This document shows positions 1,421 through 49,082 of a stretch of DNA of 64,000 bases, piece by piece. The DNA lies in NCBI GenBank assembly GCA_016195265.1, contig JACPZW010000009.1, positions 1,125 through 65,124 on the forward strand, in the 5' to 3' direction. Source of the DNA: Acidobacteriota bacterium. GTDB lineage: Bacteria > Acidobacteriota > Vicinamibacteria > Vicinamibacterales > CAVVIG01. The notes beneath the pieces were generated by a model. It did not search any database, had not been told where the DNA came from, and saw nothing but the letters and a program-made list of their open reading frames with translations. How positions within the stretch are numbered: the stretch's first letter is position 1; each line of letters begins with the position of its first letter. Position numbers and translations under genes: made by a program.

Positions 1421-2917
1421 ATGTCGCAACTCTTCCAGCGGAAACCGATCGCCGCGCTTGTCCCTGCTGGCGACGTCGCCGAGGGCGCGCCAGGGCTGAA
1501 GCGCTCGCTCGGCGCCGGCGATCTGATCATGCTGGCGATCGGCGCCGTGATCGGCGCCGGCATCTTCGGCGCGATCGGCACGGCTGCCGCGGGTCAGCTG
1601 GGGCCCAACGGAGAAGTGATCCGTCAGGGCGCGGGACCGGCGCTGGTATTTTCGTTTCTGCTGCTCGGCGCGGCATGCGCGCTCGCGGGCCTCTGCTACG
1701 CCGAGCTGGCCGCGATGATTCCGCAGGCCGGGAGCGCCTATGCGTACTCGTACGCGACGCTCGGCGAGCTGGTCGCGTGGATCATCGGCTGGGACCTGAT
1801 TCTCGAGTACGCCGTCGGCAACGTCGCCGTCGCGATTTCGTGGGGCGACTACTTCAACACGCTGCTCAGGGGATTCAACGTCTCGCTGCCCGACTGGCTG
1901 ACGACCGGCTATCGCACGGCGCTGCTCAGCTCCGATCCCAAGATTCACGGACTGCTCGCGTCCGCGCCGCACGTCGCGGGCGTGCCGATTCTGGTTCACC
2001 TGCCGGCGGCGGCAATCGTGATGGTGATCACCTGGCTGCTGTCGCGCGGCGCGCGTGAGAGCGCGACGGCCAACAACATCATGGTCGTGATCAAGCTGAT
2101 GGCGCTATCGCTCTTCGTGGTTGTCGGCGCCACGCATCTCAAGAGCGCGAACTACACCCCGTTCGCGCCCAACGGCTTCCGCGGTGTCCATCAGGGCGCG
2201 GCGATCGTGTTCTTCGCCTACATCGGCTTCGACGCGATCTCCACCGCGGCCGAGGAGACGAAGAACCCGCAGCGCAATCTGCCGATCGGCATTCTCGGCG
2301 GTCTCGCGATCTGCACGGCCATTTACGTCATCGTCGGCGGCGTACTGACCGGCATGGTGCCGTACAAGGAGCTCGCGGTCGCCGATCCGCTGGCCCGCGC
2401 GCTCGAGCTGGCCGGCTTCAAGACCGTCGGCTGGATCGTCGCGCTGGGCGCGGCGGTCTCGATGTCCGCGGTGCTGCTGGTTTTCCAGTACGGCCAGCCG
2501 CGCATCTTCTTCGCGATGGCGCGTGACGGCCTGCTCCCGAAATGGGCAGCGAAGCTCCATCCGCGCACGCGCATTCCCTGGGCGACGACGCTCTTCACGG
2601 GCGTGTTCGTGGCAGCGTGGGCCTTGATCGGCGACGCCGGAGAAACCTACGACCTCACGAATATCGGCACGCTGTTCGCGTTCATCCTCGTGAGTATCGG
2701 CGTGCTCGTGCTGCGCTACACCGAACCCGATCGCCCGCGGCCGTTCAAGGTGCCGTTCGTATGGCTGGTCTGCGTGCTGTCTGCGGCCGGATGCCTGTTC
2801 ATCATGTACGGTCTGCCGCAGGCGGCGTGGGAGCGCTTCGGCATCTGGCTCGTGATCGGCCTGCTGCTGTATTTTACCTACGGGTTCACGCACAGCAAGT
2901 TGCGGGTCCGTACGTAG
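1421..2917 (+). CDS. APC-family amino acid permease
   Basis: 498-aa ORF with about 12 hydrophobic segments. The N-terminal LKRSLGAGDLIMLAIGAVIGAGIF motif is typical of the amino acid/polyamine/organocation superfamily. Confidence 0.9.
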   Translation: MSQLFQRKPIAALVPAGDVAEGAPGLKRSLGAGDLIMLAIGAVIGAGIFGAIGTAAAGQLGPNGEVIRQGAGPALVFSFLLLGAACALAGLCYAELAAMIPQAGSAYAYSYATLGELVAWIIGWDLILEYAVGNVAVAISWGDYFNTLLRGFNVSLPDWLTTGYRTALLSSDPKIHGLLASAPHVAGVPILVHLPAAAIVMVITWLLSRGARESATANNIMVVIKLMALSLFVVVGATHLKSANYTPFAPNGFRGVHQGAAIVFFAYIGFDAISTAAEETKNPQRNLPIGILGGLAICTAIYVIVGGVLTGMVPYKELAVADPLARALELAGFKTVGWIVALGAAVSMSAVLLVFQYGQPRIFFAMARDGLLPKWAAKLHPRTRIPWATTLFTGVFVAAWALIGDAGETYDLTNIGTLFAFILVSIGVLVLRYTEPDRPRPFKVPFVWLVCVLSAAGCLFIMYGLPQAAWERFGIWLVIGLLLYFTYGFTHSKLRVRT

Positions 2918-3100
2918 GGCGGGTCCTTTCGGACCCGCTGGTGCGCTCGGTACGTAGGGCGGGTCCTTTCGGACCCGCTGGTGCGCTCGGTGCGTAGGGC
3001 GGGTCCTGTGGACCCGCCTGATCCGCCGGGTCCGAAAGGACCCGGCCTACACAGGTCCAAAAAGGACCCGGCCTACATGGTCCAGAAGGACCCGGCCTGT
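2914..3100. repeat. REP/BIME-like cluster of about six GTAGG-headed GGGTCC...GGACCC hairpin units
   Basis: GTAGG heads sit at 2914, 2954 and 2994, with CCTAC at 3046-3050 and 3072-3076 and a degenerate CCTGT at 3096-3100. There is a 40-nt direct tandem repeat at 2910-2949/2950-2989. The cluster fills the whole intergenic gap. Confidence 0.85.
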
Positions 3101-4108
3101 ATGTCCTCAATGTCCAAGCCCCTTGATGGAGTGCGCGTCCTCGACCTCACGCGTCTGTTGCCTGGCGCGTACGCGACGCTGCTGCTGGCCGATCTCGGCG
3201 CCGACGTCATCAAGATCGAAGACCCGCGCGGCGGCGACGGCATGCGGCATCTGCCGCTGACCGGTGGCGTCAACGTCTACTTCGATCGCCTCAACCGAAA
3301 CAAGCGCAGCGTCACGCTGGATCTCCGGTCGCCCGACGCCGCGCCCGTGCTCGATGCGCTGGTGGCACGCGCCGACGTGCTCGTCGAAAGCTTCCGGCCG
3401 TCGACGGCGCGGCGCCTCGGCGTCGACGCGGCGGCGCTTCGCGCGCGACATCCGCGTCTGATCTGCGCGTCCATTTCGGGCTTCGGGCAGGACGGTCCGT
3501 ACGCCGAGCGCGCGGCCCACGACATCAACTATCAGGCGCTCGCCGGTTTGCTCCGTCCGCCCCGGTTGCCCGGTCCGCTCGTCGGAGACATCGGTTCGGC
3601 GATGACGGCGGCGCTGCGGATCGCCGCCGCCCTGTTCGAGCGATCGCGGACCGGCGCCGGCTGCGCGCTCGATATCTCGATCCATGACGCCGCGCTCGCG
3701 TGGTCGATGTTTCCCACGCCCGTCGATTTCCCGCCGGCCCGCTACAACTTGTACGAGACCGCCGACGGTCAGTGGCTGGCGCTGGGCGCGCTCGAGCACA
3801 AGTTCTTTGCGGGATTCTGCGAGCGGCTGGGCATTCCGGTGACGGCCACGGTCGACGAGGTGCGCGCGGTGATGCGGACGCGCACGCGCGACGCATGGCT
3901 CGCGCATTTTGCCGGCTCGGATGTCTGCCTGACGACCGTCCATTCGCCGGCGCAGGTCGCCGCCGATCCGCAGGTCGTCGCGCGCGGCCTGATGTCGACG
4001 CCAGGCAGGAACGCGCCGGCGCTTAGCGCGGATACAGACGAGATTCTCGAGAACGCGGGCATCGGTGCGCCGGAGCGCGCACGCCTGCGTTCAGCGGGCG
4101 TGATTTGA
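3101..4108 (+). CDS. Family III CoA-transferase (CaiB/BaiF-like)
   Basis: LDGVRVLDLTRLLPGAYATLLLADLGADVIKIEDP is the N-terminal signature of CaiB/BaiF-like transferases. I placed the start at ATG 3101 (alternative 3110), because the 40 aa upstream in track ORF 2981 are encoded by REP repeats. Confidence 0.85.
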   Translation: MSSMSKPLDGVRVLDLTRLLPGAYATLLLADLGADVIKIEDPRGGDGMRHLPLTGGVNVYFDRLNRNKRSVTLDLRSPDAAPVLDALVARADVLVESFRPSTARRLGVDAAALRARHPRLICASISGFGQDGPYAERAAHDINYQALAGLLRPPRLPGPLVGDIGSAMTAALRIAAALFERSRTGAGCALDISIHDAALAWSMFPTPVDFPPARYNLYETADGQWLALGALEHKFFAGFCERLGIPVTATVDEVRAVMRTRTRDAWLAHFAGSDVCLTTVHSPAQVAADPQVVARGLMSTPGRNAPALSADTDEILENAGIGAPERARLRSAGVI

Positions 4109-11341: not shown

Positions 11342-12595
11342 TTGGCACAATCGACCGGCTTCTCCAGACCTTCCCAGGACCTCTTCTGTGACGGCGTGCC
11401 GCTCGCCGCAATCGCCGCGAAAGAGGGCACGCCGGTCTACGTCTACAGCGCGGCGGTCCTCCGCGAGCGCTACCTCGGGATCGATCGCGCGTTTGGCGGA
11501 TACCCGCACGCGCTCCACTATGCGATGAAGGCCAACTCGACGTTGGCTCTCGTGAAAGTTCTGCGGGACGCCGGCAGCGCCGCCGACGCGAACTCCATCT
11601 GGGAGATCGAGGTCGCCCGGCGGGCCGGCTTCGAGCCCGGGCAGATCGTCTTCACGGGCGTCGGCAAGTCGCAGGCCGAGCTCGAGTGCGCCGCCGGCCT
11701 CGGCGTGAAGGCCATCAACGTGGAGTCGGCCGGCGAGCTCGCCCGCGTGGAGGCGATCGCGGCGCGACTTGAAAGAAAGGCGCGCGTGGCGATTCGGGTG
11801 AATCCCGACATCGACGCCCGAAGCCATCCGCACATCTCGACCGGTCTGAAGGTCAACAAGTTCGGCATACCGATCGAAGACGCCCGCGTCCTGTTCGATT
11901 CGTTGCGCACGCGGCCGGCGCTGACGCTCGTCGCGATTCACCTGCACGTCGGATCGCAGATCACGACGATCGTCCCACTGCGTCGCGCTGCCGCGGTCGC
12001 CGCCGATCTCAGCCGCCATTTGATACAGCAGGGGCTGCCGCTCGAATATGTGGACCTCGGCGGCGGCCTGGGCATCTCGTACGACGGAAGCCAGATCGTG
12101 TCGGTGGAGGAGTACGTCGAAGCCCTGGTCGCCGAGACGCGGCGGACATCGCTGCCGATCGTGCTCGAGCCCGGCCGCGCGATCGCCGGACCGGCCGGCG
12201 TGCTCCTGGCGACGGTGATTGACGTCAAGCCGCGCACGGCCGCGAGCGACTTCGCCGTCCTCGACGCGGGGATGACCGAGTTGCTGCGGCCCGCGCTCTA
12301 CGACGCATTCCACCGGATCGAACCCGTGTCCCGCCGCGCGGACGCGGGCGACCGCCAGTACGAATTCGTCGGCCCCGTCTGCGAGAGCAGCGATGTCGTC
12401 GGCCGAGACCGGGAGCTGCCGGCGCTTTCCGTCGGCGACGTGATGGCGATCCGCGACGCCGGCGCGTACGGATCGGCGATGGCGTCCAACTACAATCGGC
12501 GCCCGCTGCCGCCGGAAGTGCTGGTCGACGGCGGCGCGTGGCGCGTGATCCGCCGGCGGCAGACCGTCGACGACATGCTTTCAACGGAGACGTAG
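11342..12595 (+). CDS. lysA: Diaminopimelate decarboxylase
   Basis: Motifs include GTPVYVYS, YAMKANS (the PLP lysine), DLGGGLGI and GPVCESSD. The TTG start is uncertain by a few codons. Confidence 0.92.
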   Translation: MAQSTGFSRPSQDLFCDGVPLAAIAAKEGTPVYVYSAAVLRERYLGIDRAFGGYPHALHYAMKANSTLALVKVLRDAGSAADANSIWEIEVARRAGFEPGQIVFTGVGKSQAELECAAGLGVKAINVESAGELARVEAIAARLERKARVAIRVNPDIDARSHPHISTGLKVNKFGIPIEDARVLFDSLRTRPALTLVAIHLHVGSQITTIVPLRRAAAVAADLSRHLIQQGLPLEYVDLGGGLGISYDGSQIVSVEEYVEALVAETRRTSLPIVLEPGRAIAGPAGVLLATVIDVKPRTAASDFAVLDAGMTELLRPALYDAFHRIEPVSRRADAGDRQYEFVGPVCESSDVVGRDRELPALSVGDVMAIRDAGAYGSAMASNYNRRPLPPEVLVDGGAWRVIRRRQTVDDMLSTET

Positions 12596-12644
12596 GGCGC
12601 GGAGCTTGCTCCGCCCCGAAGGGCCGATCAAGGTCGGCCCCTAC
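12592..12644. repeat. REP-doublet element of the second GTAGG family
   Basis: The element GTAGGGCGCGGAGCTTGCTCCGCCCCGAAGGGCCGATCAAGGTCGGCCCCTAC contains two hairpins. Its GTAG head overlaps the lysA TAG stop codon. A near-identical copy lies in reverse orientation at 43957-44005. Confidence 0.8.
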
Positions 12645-16497: not shown

Positions 16498-16812
16498 CTA
16501 TGCCTGTATCTCTCTTATCGTCACGCTGGTGTGGACCGCGCGGTGCCCCTTGGTCCGGCGCATGCCCTTGCGGCGCTTCTTCTTGAACACGCGGATCTTC
16601 GGCCCGCGCGATTCGCCGTCGACGACCGCCACGACGCGCGCGTTGGCGACGTAGGGCGCGCCGGTCAGCACTTCGCCGCCGTCCTTTTCGACGAGCAGCA
16701 CCTCGTTGAGCGTCAGCTCGGCGCCCGGCTCGCCCGCGGTGCCCGCCAGCGTCGCCCGTCCGCCCGGCTCGACCCGCAGCTGGTGCCCGCCGCTCTGGAT
16801 GATTGCGTACAT
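16498..16812 (-). CDS. rplU: 50S ribosomal protein L21
   Basis: MYAIIQSGGHQLRVEPG...KIRVFKKKRRKGMRRTKGHR. Confidence 0.97.
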   Translation of the reverse strand: MYAIIQSGGHQLRVEPGGRATLAGTAGEPGAELTLNEVLLVEKDGGEVLTGAPYVANARVVAVVDGESRGPKIRVFKKKRRKGMRRTKGHRAVHTSVTIREIQA

Positions 16813-16884
16813 AATCGGCCCCTGTGGAAAGGAGCCAGTGTAGCACTGAAAGGGGTTCCGTCGCCTAACGTCGCCTCCGGTGGG

Positions 16885-25733: not shown

Positions 25734-26023
25734 GGGTCGTGTTCTGGACGAAGCAAGCGCTGGCCGATCTGGCCGCGATTCGCGCGTTCATCAGTCAGGA
25801 CTCGCCTCACTACGCGTCGGTCATCGTCTCCCGGCTCATCGCGGCGACAGATCGATTGGTTCCATTCCCTGAATCTGGCCGAGCAGTACCGGAATTCGAC
25901 GATCCGTTGGTCCGGGAAGTCGTGGACCGGCCCTACCGCATCGTCTATCGACTGGTGGGTATCGACGAGGTTCACGTGCTGACGGTCCATCACTCATCAC
26001 AGAGCTTCCCCGAAGAACTCTGA
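25730..26023 (+). CDS. RelE/ParE-family toxin
   Basis: The sequence WTKQALADLAAIRAFISQDSP...FPESGRAVPEF...REVVDRPYRIVYRL...VHVLTVHH has a typical ParE layout. Confidence 0.85.
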   Translation: MRVVFWTKQALADLAAIRAFISQDSPHYASVIVSRLIAATDRLVPFPESGRAVPEFDDPLVREVVDRPYRIVYRLVGIDEVHVLTVHHSSQSFPEEL

Positions 26024-29823: not shown

Positions 29824-31866
29824 TCAAGGCTCCGTGGCGAGGTCGGTCGCGGTTTGCAGTTCTTCCCATTGATGCATTAGGCCGCCGACCTGCCACATCA
29901 GGGCCTGATGACGGTCGATGACCGGCTGCGCCGCCGCGCGATTGTCGTAGAAGCCCGGCGCGGCCATCTCCTGTTCGATCGTCCGGAGCGACGCTTCGCA
30001 CTCGGCGATGCGCGCCTCGATCTCTTCGAGCCGCGTGCGGCGCGCATGCGCCGCGCGATTCTTCTTCCGCGCCTCGGCGTCGACTTTTTTCCGCTCTTCG
30101 CGTGACGGCTTCTGCGGATCGGCAGGAGGTGTAGGCCGGGTCCTTTGGACCCGGCTGCCAGGCGGGTCCGAAAGGACCCGCCCCACGTCTTTTTTCTTCC
30201 CGACCTGCCCCTGCTGCCTCTCCCGCCCCTCCTGCCTCTCCTGCCCGTCCCGCCTATCGTCCCGGTGTTCCTTGTGCCAGAGGAATTCCTTGTAGGTTCC
30301 CGGGAACGCGGTCGCCTCGCCGTGGCCGATCTCGATGATCTTGGTCGCGAGCCGTTCGACGAAATACCGATCGTGCGACACGAAGATCAGCGTCCCGCCG
30401 TAGTCGACCAGCGCGTCGAGCAGGACTTCCTTCGAGTCGAGATCGAGATGGTTCGTCGGCTCGTCGAGCAACAGGGTGTTCGACGGCCGCAGCAGCATGC
30501 GCGCCACGGCGAGGCGGGTGCGTTCGCCGCCGGACAGCACGCGCACGGGCTTGTACACATCGTCGCCCGAGAACAGAAAGCCGCCGAGGATGTTGCGGAT
30601 CATCGGCACCATTTGCAGCGGCGATCCGGAGGAGAGGGTTTCGTAGACGGTCGGGCCCGGATCCAGCCGCGTCGCTTCGTCCTGCGCGAAGTACTGCATG
30701 ACGACGTTGTGGCCCGGCGTGCGCTGGCCGGCGCCGGGCGCTTCCTCGCCGGACAGCATCCGCATCAGCGTCGACTTGCCGACGCCGTTGGGGCCGACGA
30801 GCGCGGTTCGGTCGCCCCGCTCGATGTGCAGGTTGAGATCCTTGAACACGACGAGGTCGCCGTACGCCTTGCGCGCGTGCGTGAGCTCGAGGACGGTCCG
30901 GCCGCTCTTGGCGCAGACCGGGAAATCGAAATGGATCTTCTTGCGCTCGGGCGGCACTTCGATCGGCACGACCTTCTCGAGCATCTTGATCCGGCTCTGC
31001 ACCTGCGACGCCTTGGTCGCCTGATACCGGAACCGGTCGATGAACATCTTCACGCGCGCGATTTCCTCGTCCTGCTCGCGCTTGGCTTTCCGTAGGGTCT
31101 CGATGCGCTCGTGATGCTCGACGAGGTACCCGCTGTAGTTCGTGTGGTAATCGGTCAGCGTGCGCAGCGTCAGATCGGCGATGCGCGTGACGACCGCGTC
31201 GAGGAAGAACCGATCGTGCGACACGAGGATCACCGCGTGCGGGTAGGCGTTGAGGTACTCCTCGAGCCAGTTGCGCGCCTCGAGGTCCAGGTGGTTCGTC
31301 GGCTCGTCGAGGAGGAGCAGGTTCGGCTGGCCCAGCAGCAGTTTGGCGAGCGCGATGCGCATCTGCCAGCCGCCGGAGAAGGTCTCGGTCGGCCGCACGA
31401 GATCACGCTGCGAAAAACCGAGGCCCTGGAGCACGGTGGCGGTCTTCAGTTCGATGCTGTAGCCGTCCCGCACGCGAAACGCGTCTTGCAGATCGCTGTA
31501 GCGGTGCAGCATCGCGTCGTGCTCGGCTTCGGGGATCCCCTGATCGCCGAGCCGCGCCTCGAGCGCGTGCATCTCGGCCTTCATGTCGAGCAGCACGCCG
31601 AACGCGCTCGACGCTTCCTCGAAGACCGTGTGTCCGCTGTGGGTGAGTCCGTCCTGCGGGAGGTACCCGACGGTCAGCGCCGCCGGTTTGAGGATCGCGC
31701 CCGAGTCGGGCTCGTCGAGCCCGGCCATCATCCGCATCAGCGTCGTCTTGCCGGCCCCGTTCGGGCCGCACAGGCCGACGCGCTCGCGATCAGTGATCTG
31801 CCACGTGACGTGATCGAACAGGACGCGATCGCCGAAGGACTTCGTGAGCTCCGAGAGCTGGATCAT
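29824..31866 (-). CDS. ABC-F family ATPase with two ABC domains and a C-terminal coiled coil
   Basis: Walker A motifs GPNGAGKTT and GPNGVGKST, signature motifs LSGGWQMR and LSGGERTR, and no transmembrane segments. The ATG overlaps the upstream stop codon (ATGA). Confidence 0.9.
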   Translation of the reverse strand: MIQLSELTKSFGDRVLFDHVTWQITDRERVGLCGPNGAGKTTLMRMMAGLDEPDSGAILKPAALTVGYLPQDGLTHSGHTVFEEASSAFGVLLDMKAEMHALEARLGDQGIPEAEHDAMLHRYSDLQDAFRVRDGYSIELKTATVLQGLGFSQRDLVRPTETFSGGWQMRIALAKLLLGQPNLLLLDEPTNHLDLEARNWLEEYLNAYPHAVILVSHDRFFLDAVVTRIADLTLRTLTDYHTNYSGYLVEHHERIETLRKAKREQDEEIARVKMFIDRFRYQATKASQVQSRIKMLEKVVPIEVPPERKKIHFDFPVCAKSGRTVLELTHARKAYGDLVVFKDLNLHIERGDRTALVGPNGVGKSTLMRMLSGEEAPGAGQRTPGHNVVMQYFAQDEATRLDPGPTVYETLSSGSPLQMVPMIRNILGGFLFSGDDVYKPVRVLSGGERTRLAVARMLLRPSNTLLLDEPTNHLDLDSKEVLLDALVDYGGTLIFVSHDRYFVERLATKIIEIGHGEATAFPGTYKEFLWHKEHRDDRRDGQERQEGRERQQGQVGKKKDVGRVLSDPPGSRVQRTRPTPPADPQKPSREERKKVDAEARKKNRAAHARRTRLEEIEARIAECEASLRTIEQEMAAPGFYDNRAAAQPVIDRHQALMWQVGGLMHQWEELQTATDLATEP
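30131..30254. repeat. REPIN plus G/C heptad tract inside the ABC-F coding sequence
   Basis: The REPIN is GTAGGCCGGGTCCTTTGGACCCGGC-tgccag-GCGGGTCCGAAAGGACCCGCCCCAC (30131-30186). A CTGCC-rich periodic tract follows at 30205-30254. On the minus strand the whole block is read in frame. Confidence 0.8.
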
Positions 31867-43306: not shown

Positions 43307-43960
43307 ATGAAGCTCTTCATCGACTCCGGCAACATCAAGGACATCGAGACGCTGACGGCGCTGGGCATCATCGACGGCGTGACGACCAATCCGTCGCTGC
43401 TCGCCAAGGAGCCAGGCGACTATCGCGACAACCTCAAGCGCATTTGCCAGATCGTCAAAGGCCCCGTCAGCGGCGAAGTGACGGCGACCGACTTCGCCGG
43501 CATGCTGCAGCAGGGCCACGACGTCGCGAAGATCGATCCGCACATGGTCGTGAAGGTCCCGCTGACGCGCGAGGGCATCAAGACGTGCACGGCGCTCTCG
43601 GGCGAGGGCATTCGCGTCAATGTGACGCTCTGCTTCTCGGCCGCACAGGCGCTGCTCGCGGCGAAGGCGGGCGCGGCCTACATCAGCCCCTTCGTCGGCC
43701 GGCTCGACGACATCGCCACCAACGGCATGGCCCTGATTCGCGAGATCGTGGACATCTACAACAACTACGACTTCAAGACCGAGATCCTGGTCGCCAGCTG
43801 CCGTCACCCGATTCACGTCGTCGAAGCGGCGCGCATGGGCGCCGACGTCGCGACGTGTCCGCCCGCGGTGATCGATCAGATGTTCAATCACCCGCTGACG
43901 AACATCGGGCTGGAAAAATTCCTGAAGGACTGGGAGAAATCGCAGGCTGTCAAAGCGTAG
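43307..43960 (+). CDS. fsa: Fructose-6-phosphate aldolase / type 3B transaldolase
   Basis: Motifs include [22 protein letters not shown] (the Schiff-base Lys region) and [10 protein letters not shown]. Confidence 0.93.
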
Positions 43961-44005
43961 GGGCCGCCTTGGTCGGCCCGAGGGCGGAGCAAGCTCCGCC
44001 CCTAC
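43957..44005. repeat. REP-doublet element, reverse copy of 12592-12644
   Basis: The element is GTAGGGGCCGCCTTGGTCGGCCCGAGGGCGGAGCAAGCTCCGCCCCTAC. Its GTAG head overlaps the fsa TAG stop codon. Confidence 0.8.
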
Positions 44006-44008
44006 GAG

Positions 44009-44060
44009 CCAGCCACCCATCACTAGCCACCCGTCACCAGCCACCAGTCACCAGCCACCA
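44009..44060. repeat. CCAGCCA-family array running up to the next start codon
   Basis: The sequence is ccagccacccatcactagccacccgtcaccagccaccagtcaccagccacca. Confidence 0.7.
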
Positions 44061-49015: not shown

Positions 49016-49073
49016 GTAGGGCGGGTCCTTTGGGACCCGCCTGATCGGGCCGGGTCCGAAAGGACCCGGCCTA
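49016..49073. repeat. REPIN: two inverted GTAGG-headed REP units
   Basis: GTAGGGCGGGTCCTTTGGGACCCGCC-tgatcgg-GCCGGGTCCGAAAGGACCCGGCCTAC. Confidence 0.88.
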
Positions 49074-49082
49074 CAACATCCT

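Follow-up and report, generated by a model that had tools for sequence, protein, structure and literature searches.

We describe a repeat array in a 64,000-nucleotide stretch of DNA (the window) from an Acidobacteriota bacterium of the order Vicinamibacterales (GenBank assembly GCA_016195265.1, contig JACPZW010000009.1, positions 1,125 to 65,124 of the forward strand). The 187 bases between an amino-acid permease gene and a coenzyme A (CoA)-transferase gene are occupied from end to end by six hairpin units (window positions 2914-3100). The array is very probably a cluster of repetitive extragenic palindromic (REP) sequences, similar to the bacterial interspersed mosaic elements (BIMEs), and part of a REPIN-RAYT system, that is, of inverted REP doublets (REPINs) and a REP-associated tyrosine transposase (RAYT). 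On this account a doublet landed between the two genes, the TAG of its GTAG head became the permease stop codon, and tandem amplification followed. The sharing of stop codons between genes and REPs would then be the outcome of insertion and selection.

Structure of the array

The permease gene (APC family, 498 amino acids, plus strand; Pfam AA_permease_2, 3.5e-54) is an open reading frame (ORF) at 1421-2917. Its end is among the confidently called gene ends (2915), and its TAG stop at 2915-2917 lies within the first GTAGG head. The family III CoA-transferase gene (3101-4108, plus strand; Pfam CoA_transf_3, 1.6e-81) has an N-terminus, MSKPLDGVRVLDLT, that is conserved in relatives. It starts at ATG 3101 or ATG 3110, and the last unit directly abuts the first of these. 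Because the permease stop sits in the first head and the CoA-transferase begins at 3101 (or 3110), the array fills the entire spacer. A first-pass annotation, made from the letters alone, had placed six units here, three forward with GTAGG heads and three reverse ending in CCTAC or CCTGT, with the permease stop in the first head. The unit coordinates and the end of the ORF bear this out.

The three forward, GTAG-headed units are followed by three reverse units in the order AAA>BBB<, where A and B denote two subtypes. The forward units have the form GTAGGGCGGGTCC-loop-GGACCCGC and a tandem period of 40 nt. Unit A1 (2914-2938, plus strand) reads GTAGG-G-CGGGTCC-TTTC-GGACCCG-C. Unit A2 (2954-2978, plus strand) is a tandem copy of A1 and is 98% identical to it, spacer included. 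Unit A3 (2994-3017, plus strand) is 75% identical to A1 and has the loop TGT; taken together with the CCTGATC spacer behind it and a B unit, A3 corresponds to the one A>B< doublet present at this site in a sister genome, G002. The reverse units begin with GTAGGCCGGGTCC when read on the reverse complement. Unit B1 (3026-3050, minus strand) has the reverse complement GTAGG-C-CGGGTCC-TTTC-GGACCCG-G, and unit B2 (3051-3076, minus strand) has a degenerate distal arm; both end in CCTAC on the plus strand. Unit B3 (3077-3100, minus strand) has a degenerate head, CCTGT on the plus strand, and a CAGAAGG loop like that of the B unit in G002. The window contains 10 occurrences of the head pattern GTAGGSCGGGTCC with at most one mismatch, where shuffled sequence would give 0.06.

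As RNA, the region 2905-3105 folds at -131.5 kcal/mol (z -8.8), with the A units paired to the B units in one long composite hairpin. A scan of 2700-3300 found no intrinsic terminator; none of the stems is followed by a T-run, and the tails of the units are rich in GC. No promoter-like site was found in the scan of the array region, and an Rfam scan of the region gave chance-level matches only (19-25 bits, far below the gathering scores). A CRISPR-like array is ruled out by the palindromic nature of the units and because the 15-nt stretches that would be its "spacers" within each 40-nt period are repeats as well. The insertion possibly uncouples the two genes and puts very stable RNA hairpins at the 3' end of the permease mRNA. 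Effects on permease mRNA stability, on termination at a stop codon at the foot of a hairpin and on CoA-transferase initiation after the last unit are plausible. In E. coli, REPs within about 15 nt of a stop codon reportedly reduce expression through ribosome stalling and trans-translation, an effect that Liang, Rudd and Deutscher are said to have described in 2015.

Copy number and architecture in the genome

The genome that contains the window (G000; the window is on contig C61) is a short-read metagenome-assembled genome (MAG) of 4.54 Mb and 66.8% GC in 87 contigs, estimated at 91% completeness. A genome-wide count of GTAGG[CG]CGGGTCC, with which the first-pass annotation proposed to check its family, gives 544 exact heads; the same pattern read backwards, used as a control, gives 0. 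When two mismatches are allowed and the second arm is required, there are 696 units in 336 clusters, or 0.38% of the genome. The GTAG head is present in 559 of the 696 units, and unit sequences rank among the most frequent 14-mers of the genome.

The consensus of the unit is GTAGG-S-CGGGTCC-TTTC-GGACCCG-S', with a loop of TTTC or TTTT. Subtype A (GTAGG-G-...-C) has 364 units and subtype B (GTAGG-C-...-G) has 330. The position that follows GTAGG changes almost perfectly in step with the one that follows the 3' arm (G..C 220, C..G 221, mismatched 14). It follows that the stem, which is rich in GC and set off from the GTAG head by one base, has 8 bp and that A and B are told apart by the orientation of its closing pair.

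Among the architectures, the convergent A>B< doublet with outward heads is the most frequent and accounts for 86 of the 134 two-unit clusters. Adjacent convergent pairs are AB in 120 cases, AA in 36 and BB in 28 (P=5e-5), and the most common spacer length between them is 8 nt, often with the sequence CTGATCAG. Singlets number 122, and the largest arrays have 10 units. Clusters occupy 136 co-directional, 50 convergent and 6 divergent spacers, against a baseline of 70/15/15% taken from an approximate gene map, so divergent spacers are avoided. The family thus has the attributes of a REP/REPIN: a short, GTAG-footed imperfect palindrome, a high and dispersed copy number, a preference for spacers and a predominance of inverted doublets. 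The BIME arrangement of two subtypes in inverted orientation is found genome-wide, and the AAA>BBB< layout in the window is not strictly alternating.

Ten of the 336 clusters are within 200 nt of a contig end (for example C3:5-61 and C17:9-85). The contig that carries the RAYT gene of G002 is 2.1 kb long and bounded by REP arrays. REPs break short-read assemblies.

The RAYT gene and its relatives

A Pfam Y1_Tnp search of the whole genome found one intact RAYT gene, which encodes 158 amino acids at G000:C37:131631-132107 (PF01797, 34 bits). The protein scores 114.1 bits on the NCBIfam model NF047646, "REP-associated tyrosine transposase" (REP_Tyr_transpos), with a cut-off of 80, and only 25.7 bits on an IS200 transposase model with a cut-off of 55. 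Its closest solved structure is E. coli TnpA_REP, 4ER8 (phmmer E=8.8e-9). In the alignment to 4ER8 the HuH motif (HVH), the catalytic Tyr and the Asn of Y-x-x-x-N-P are conserved, and the segments RYILANP and LWQ..FHDH..R align. The GTAG-contacting residues listed in PMC6006769 (W, Q, E100, H and R) are kept, with D in place of E100. A D at this position is also seen in subclasses 2.5 and 2.7 of TnpA_REP (Quentin et al. 2018, PMC6006769).

The gene lies among units of the array family. Seven are upstream (a 40-nt tandem array of five A units, plus a B< and an A>) and four are downstream (B<, A>, B<, B<). A RAYT flanked on both sides by units of one family, a single full-length RAYT per REP family and lineage specificity of that family are marks of a REPtron, and all are found here. 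The first-pass annotation had likened the layout to enterobacterial REP/REPIN elements mobilized by RAYTs. The GTAG head, the palindrome, the inverted doublets and a RAYT flanked by the same REPs are indeed present, but the family is not an enterobacterial one and the host belongs to the Acidobacteriota.

The remains of a second, decayed RAYT, about 50 C-terminal residues (DHVLRDEDATLAVARYILENPVRAG...), are at C79:16561-16671. The remnant (region 16500-16830) is flanked by a smaller, third GTAG family, GTAGCGCAGSCC (GTAGCGCAGGCC-TTCA-GGCCTGC), with a few dozen copies. A smaller repeat family beside a dead transposase is what the REPIN-RAYT population model predicts.

G000 was compared with 30 related genomes. 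The strict unit pattern has 457 copies in G000, 381 and 9 copies in two congeners, and 0-1 copies in 28 other genera of the family and order. The array family is limited to the genus. In named genome records the relatives of the RAYT are found in Vicinamibacterales and other Acidobacteriota MAGs. RAYT homologues above the curated cut-off are encoded by 10 of the 31 genomes. Where inspected, each of these lies among a GTAG or GTGG hairpin family of its own, often again with two subtypes. The main family of the congener G001 (loci L096 and L114-L144), GTAGCGCGAGCC-TTTCA-GGCGAGCG, is not a perfect palindrome, as its stem has a central tandem G.A/A.G mismatch. The G001 RAYT (L096) is flanked by a perfect variant, GTAGCGCGACCC-TTTCA-GGGTCGCG.

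REP heads as stop codons

Gene ends were called with a codon log-odds model of our own, trained on 1,633 long ORFs. This gave 3,108 confident ends (1,582 TGA, 999 TAG and 527 TAA). The TAG of a confident gene is supplied by 45 of the 559 GTAG heads. When the distance from each head to the nearest upstream same-strand stop is tabulated, register 0 has 46 cases, whereas the positions from 9 to 49 nt average 3.5 each (Poisson P about 4e-35). The overlap of heads with stops, which the first-pass annotation proposed to test against chance, is far above it. In the A units the head is in frame in 20 cases, and one gene reads through the hairpin to a TGA in the A-unit tail (P=2e-5). When all hairpin families are considered, 14.3% of G-TAG stops have a perfect hairpin of 7 bp or more that begins 3-7 nt beyond the stop's T, against 1-2% in every other stop context.

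Stop usage in G000 is 51% TGA, 32% TAG and 17% TAA, a TAG share that seems high for 67% GC. A G precedes 52% of the TAG stops, and about 7.5% of all TAG stops are due to GTAG-headed hairpins.

The 45 genes were compared with their orthologs in G001, which gave 37 good pairs. The G001 stops are TAG in 18, TGA in 15 and TAA in 4, and about half of the 18 TAGs are heads of REP families of G001 itself. The stop position is conserved in 19 of the 37 genes with a REP stop and in 50 of 55 controls (Fisher P=4e-5), the controls being neighbouring genes at the same loci without a family-1 head (a head of the array family) at the stop. At conserved positions, identity over the last 6 nt is 56% for REP-stop genes and 79% for controls (P=0.005). 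Since both the position of the stop and the last codons are less conserved, the heads have taken the place of native stops and altered the last codons. The comparison rules out, as the general rule, that units landed behind a TAG already present.

With G002, 6 of 19 pairs have a family-1 head at the stop in both genomes, and in several others a unit lies 3-40 nt behind the gene's own stop. The stop-sharing state turns over between species. The sequence before GTAG is G-R-T-A-Y whether or not a gene end is near, and G is found at -1 in only 2%. Alignments to empty sites gave no single consistent junction rule and were clean for few loci only (rplN-rplX and a pair with an ATGA overlap). The occupation of these gene ends by other GTAG families in G001 amounts to no more than a trend (10 of 37 against 8 of 60, P=0.11).

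The permease junction in related genomes

In G002, of the same genus, the permease also ends in the TAG of an A head, and the spacer is taken up by one A>B< doublet. The B unit of this doublet has the CAGAAGG loop of the last unit of the array, and the A-CCTGATC-B junction matches that of A3 and B1. From this shared junction and loop we infer that the array in the window is a tandem amplification of both halves of one ancestral doublet. The congener G001, which has few family-1 copies, carries a doublet of a second GTAG family at the same junction, and its head TAG is again the permease stop. In G007, a REP-free genome of another genus, the TGA of the permease overlaps the GTG start of the CoA-transferase. 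The C-terminal tail of the permease varies among these genomes (KLRVRT, KLRAGVQRAHT and KLRAQSRTA, with RLHRRGRASA in G007). The overlap in G007 therefore suggests that a REP insertion separated the pair, replaced the permease stop and left a variable C-terminal tail.

Two other gene pairs have a comparable arrangement. A B>A< doublet lies between rplN and rplX in G000 (contig C75, ortholog case 39) and in G002 (L160), and the rplN stop is a head TAG. In G001 (L123) the two genes are 2 nt apart, TAGccATG. On contig C23 of G000 (ortholog case 17) a three-unit REP cluster parts two genes that have an ATGA stop/start overlap in G001 (L112). The C23 cluster is a second case in which a REP has come between translationally coupled genes.

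Origin of the array and alternative explanations

What moves is most likely a REPIN, namely the convergent A>B< doublet, some 58 nt long. On the model of E. coli TnpA_REP, the single intact HuH-Y1 RAYT of the genome would cut and rejoin this doublet as single-stranded DNA. To judge from the relatives, one such doublet would have landed at the junction of two ancestrally overlapping genes, and its head TAG would then have become the permease stop. Later amplification of both halves in tandem would have produced the three A and three B units. Insertions into the last codons of a gene would survive where the head TAG is in frame and be lost where the gene would read through the hairpin. Under such selection, stop sharing is a by-product of insertion and not a dedicated function. 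Later small rearrangements at the very end of genes, under the same selection, could lead to the same gene ends by another route.

Several observations weigh against this explanation. The RAYT of G002 is only 78% identical to that of G000 although the A and B units are identical, and in one other MAG identical units accompany a RAYT that is only 58% identical. The DNA element is thus more conserved than the protein, and the pairing of the two looks looser than strict co-evolution predicts. Registers 3-6 are near-empty (1-2 stops each) and registers 7 and 8 form a second peak (14 and 15; for example TGAtatGTAGG and TAGatatGTAGG), a pattern that selection alone does not obviously explain. Some preference for the insertion site may contribute. 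The role of the RAYT in mobilization is deduced from its association with the units and, by analogy, from the biochemistry of the E. coli protein. The source is a short-read MAG of 87 contigs, from which the copy number of the tandem array is taken.

These register peaks also speak for a different view, which we consider unlikely, that the RAYT machinery prefers to insert at stop codons or gene 3' ends, or immediately beside them, and that sharing is the direct product of targeting. Such homing would account for sharp peaks at registers 0, 7 and 8 with little between them, and for the G-R-T-A-Y flank, which is independent of gene ends and which the stop overlaps in the register 7/8 cases. It would also suit the permease junction, where three congeners have three different REP states and the head is the stop in each, and the sites at which the corresponding position in a congener is a plain TAG (rplN-rplX and ortholog cases 1 and 14). 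However, the orthologous G001 stop is TGA or TAA in 19 of the 37 pairs, and about half of the 18 TAGs are the heads of other REP families. The poor conservation of stop positions and last codons relative to controls points to overwriting and not to landing behind a TAG. The re-use of gene ends in G001 does not reach significance, and about 90% of the units are not at a stop.

It is similarly improbable that GTAG REPs systematically rewrite gene 3' ends through a preferred stop-codon register, with the RAYT machinery, or its replication or translation context, sensing the neighbourhood of stops. The three favoured registers would here be those in which the 5' nucleotides of the element, GRTAY-GTAG, overlap or abut the stop. 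If this were true, about 1.5% of genes would have C-termini remodelled in this manner. Coupled overlapping pairs, such as the permease/CoA-transferase, ATGA-overlap and rplN-rplX pairs, would be split recurrently, and different REP families in sister species would re-use the same landing sites.

An assembly artefact, in which the true locus is a single doublet as in G002 and the short-read metagenome assembly created the six units, is very unlikely. The MAG is in 87 contigs, and REPs do disturb its assembly, since ten clusters lie within 200 nt of contig ends. However, the six units differ in their loops, heads and spacers, unlike the collapsed or looped assembly of identical repeats. Comparable tandem arrays are found at many loci in G000 and G002, including beside the RAYT gene. 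The family and its stop sharing are in any case independent of copy number.

That the hairpins are host-evolved terminators or mRNA stabilizers, selected site by site, is hardly credible, for although they favour gene 3' ends, avoid divergent spacers and form a very stable RNA in the array (-131.5 kcal/mol), one sequence of 25 nt, with a GTAG head that does not vary, is present in some 700 near-identical copies (independent convergence on it is implausible), no T-run follows the stems and the terminator scan was empty, the units nest around a RAYT gene, and the 28 related genera have 0-1 copies and other families tied to other RAYTs. A secondary effect of the hairpins at the RNA level, distinct from their origin, may exist.

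Other repeats in the window and the genome

Two further copies of the array family, already pointed out by the first-pass annotation, are doublets. The first (30131-30186) is B> A< with a degenerate A head, GTGGG. The second (49016-49074) is A> B< and begins 8 nt past the TAG stop of the upstream gene (TAGatgaGTAGGG). The annotation was also right about a second GTAGG family in the window, at 12592-12644 and 43957-44005. The former copy is a doublet of two different hairpins (GTAGGGCGCGGAGC... and, on the other strand, GTAGGGGCCGACC...), and the upstream gene terminates at the TAG of its head (12593). The latter is the same doublet in the opposite orientation, and its head TAG at 43958 is likewise the upstream stop. 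This second family (GTAGGGGCGGAGC / GTAGGGGCCGACC) has a few dozen copies in the genome, and no RAYT for it was found there.

A lone GTAGGGCCGGTCC head, one mismatch off family 1, is at 25924-25936 on the minus strand. It is identical to the stem variant that flanks a RAYT of 64% identity in another MAG (L003). Among 14-mers, tandem arrays of the heptamer CCAGCCA / TGGCTGG (window 44009-44060 and genome-wide) match the REPs in abundance, with about 250-270 occurrences. Others of a heptamer-like kind (TCCTCACA, AATCTGA) reach about 100 occurrences. Such arrays often adjoin gene ends.

Relationship to known systems and implications

The system resembles the REP/BIME-TnpA_REP REPtron of E. coli as PMC6006769 outlines it (Ton-Hoang 2012, Messing 2012; PDB 4ER8). 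In that outline a GTAG head stands at the foot of an imperfect palindrome, and two subtypes alternate in inverted orientation (Y and Z there, A and B here). Clusters fill spacers, and the one RAYT gene, whose product has the HuH, Y, N and GTAG-contacting residues, lies within a nest of its REPs. The differences from that outline are a stem of 8 bp against about 14 bp, an unrelated stem sequence, a distant RAYT (the phmmer match given above) and a host in the Acidobacteriota rather than the Enterobacteria.

As in the REPIN-RAYT systems of Pseudomonas (Bertels & Rainey 2011, PMC3116915), the convergent doublet predominates beside singlets and clusters, there are hundreds of copies per RAYT, and the family is restricted to one lineage. 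In subclass 2.5 (Quentin et al. 2018, PMC6006769) the REPs are likewise short and have their GTAG 1 nt off the stem, and foot and stem together come to about 13 nt here, with a subclass range of 10-13. The D that replaces E100 also recalls subclasses 2.5 and 2.7, a likeness in features. Unlike our family, subclass 2.5 is mostly from Xanthomonads and Pseudomonads (PMC6006769). The two halves of the doublet are distinct compensatory subtypes here, unlike those of the Pseudomonas REPINs and subclass 2.5.

The SMAG repeats of Stenotrophomonas maltophilia (Roscetto 2008, PMC2613905; Di Nocera 2013, PMC3733652) are also short GTAG-tagged palindromes, in a genome of about 67% GC. They too form monomers, dimers and tandem arrays, through duplication of a unit and its flank, and prefer co-directional and convergent spacers. 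One GTAG family can replace another at the same locus between strains. The stem sequence (SMAG GTAGTGCCGGCCGCTGGCCGGCA) and the phylum differ. Identity with SMAG is ruled out, as the SMAG consensus is different and the RAYT has its relatives in the Acidobacteriota. The type of element and the sharing of TAG have already been published (Di Nocera 2013, PMC3733652). Measurements of the frame bias and of gene-end remodelling were not found in Roscetto 2008 (PMC2613905) or Di Nocera 2013 (PMC3733652).

Overall, the family comes closest to SMAG and to the short-REP systems known from Xanthomonads and Pseudomonads, but it is found in the Acidobacteriota, and its stem resembles subclass 2.5 more than the long E. 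coli REP. The evidence supports a REP/REPIN-RAYT system of the GTAG superfamily and no new kind of system.

To our knowledge, REP-RAYT systems have been studied almost only in Proteobacteria. The Vicinamibacterales are an abundant and nearly uncultured soil group, and no published description of such a system for them was found in the literature searched. The REPIN-RAYT system described here is a clean, large and apparently live example from this order, with about 700 units, two compensatory subtypes, one intact RAYT and a decayed RAYT with a smaller family. It puts numbers on a point that was previously qualitative: REP heads are the stop codons of about 1.5% of genes, read-through is almost never seen, and gene ends are remodelled relative to a congener. 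For annotation, it explains the spacers of such MAGs that consist entirely of repeats and the contig breaks at arrays.

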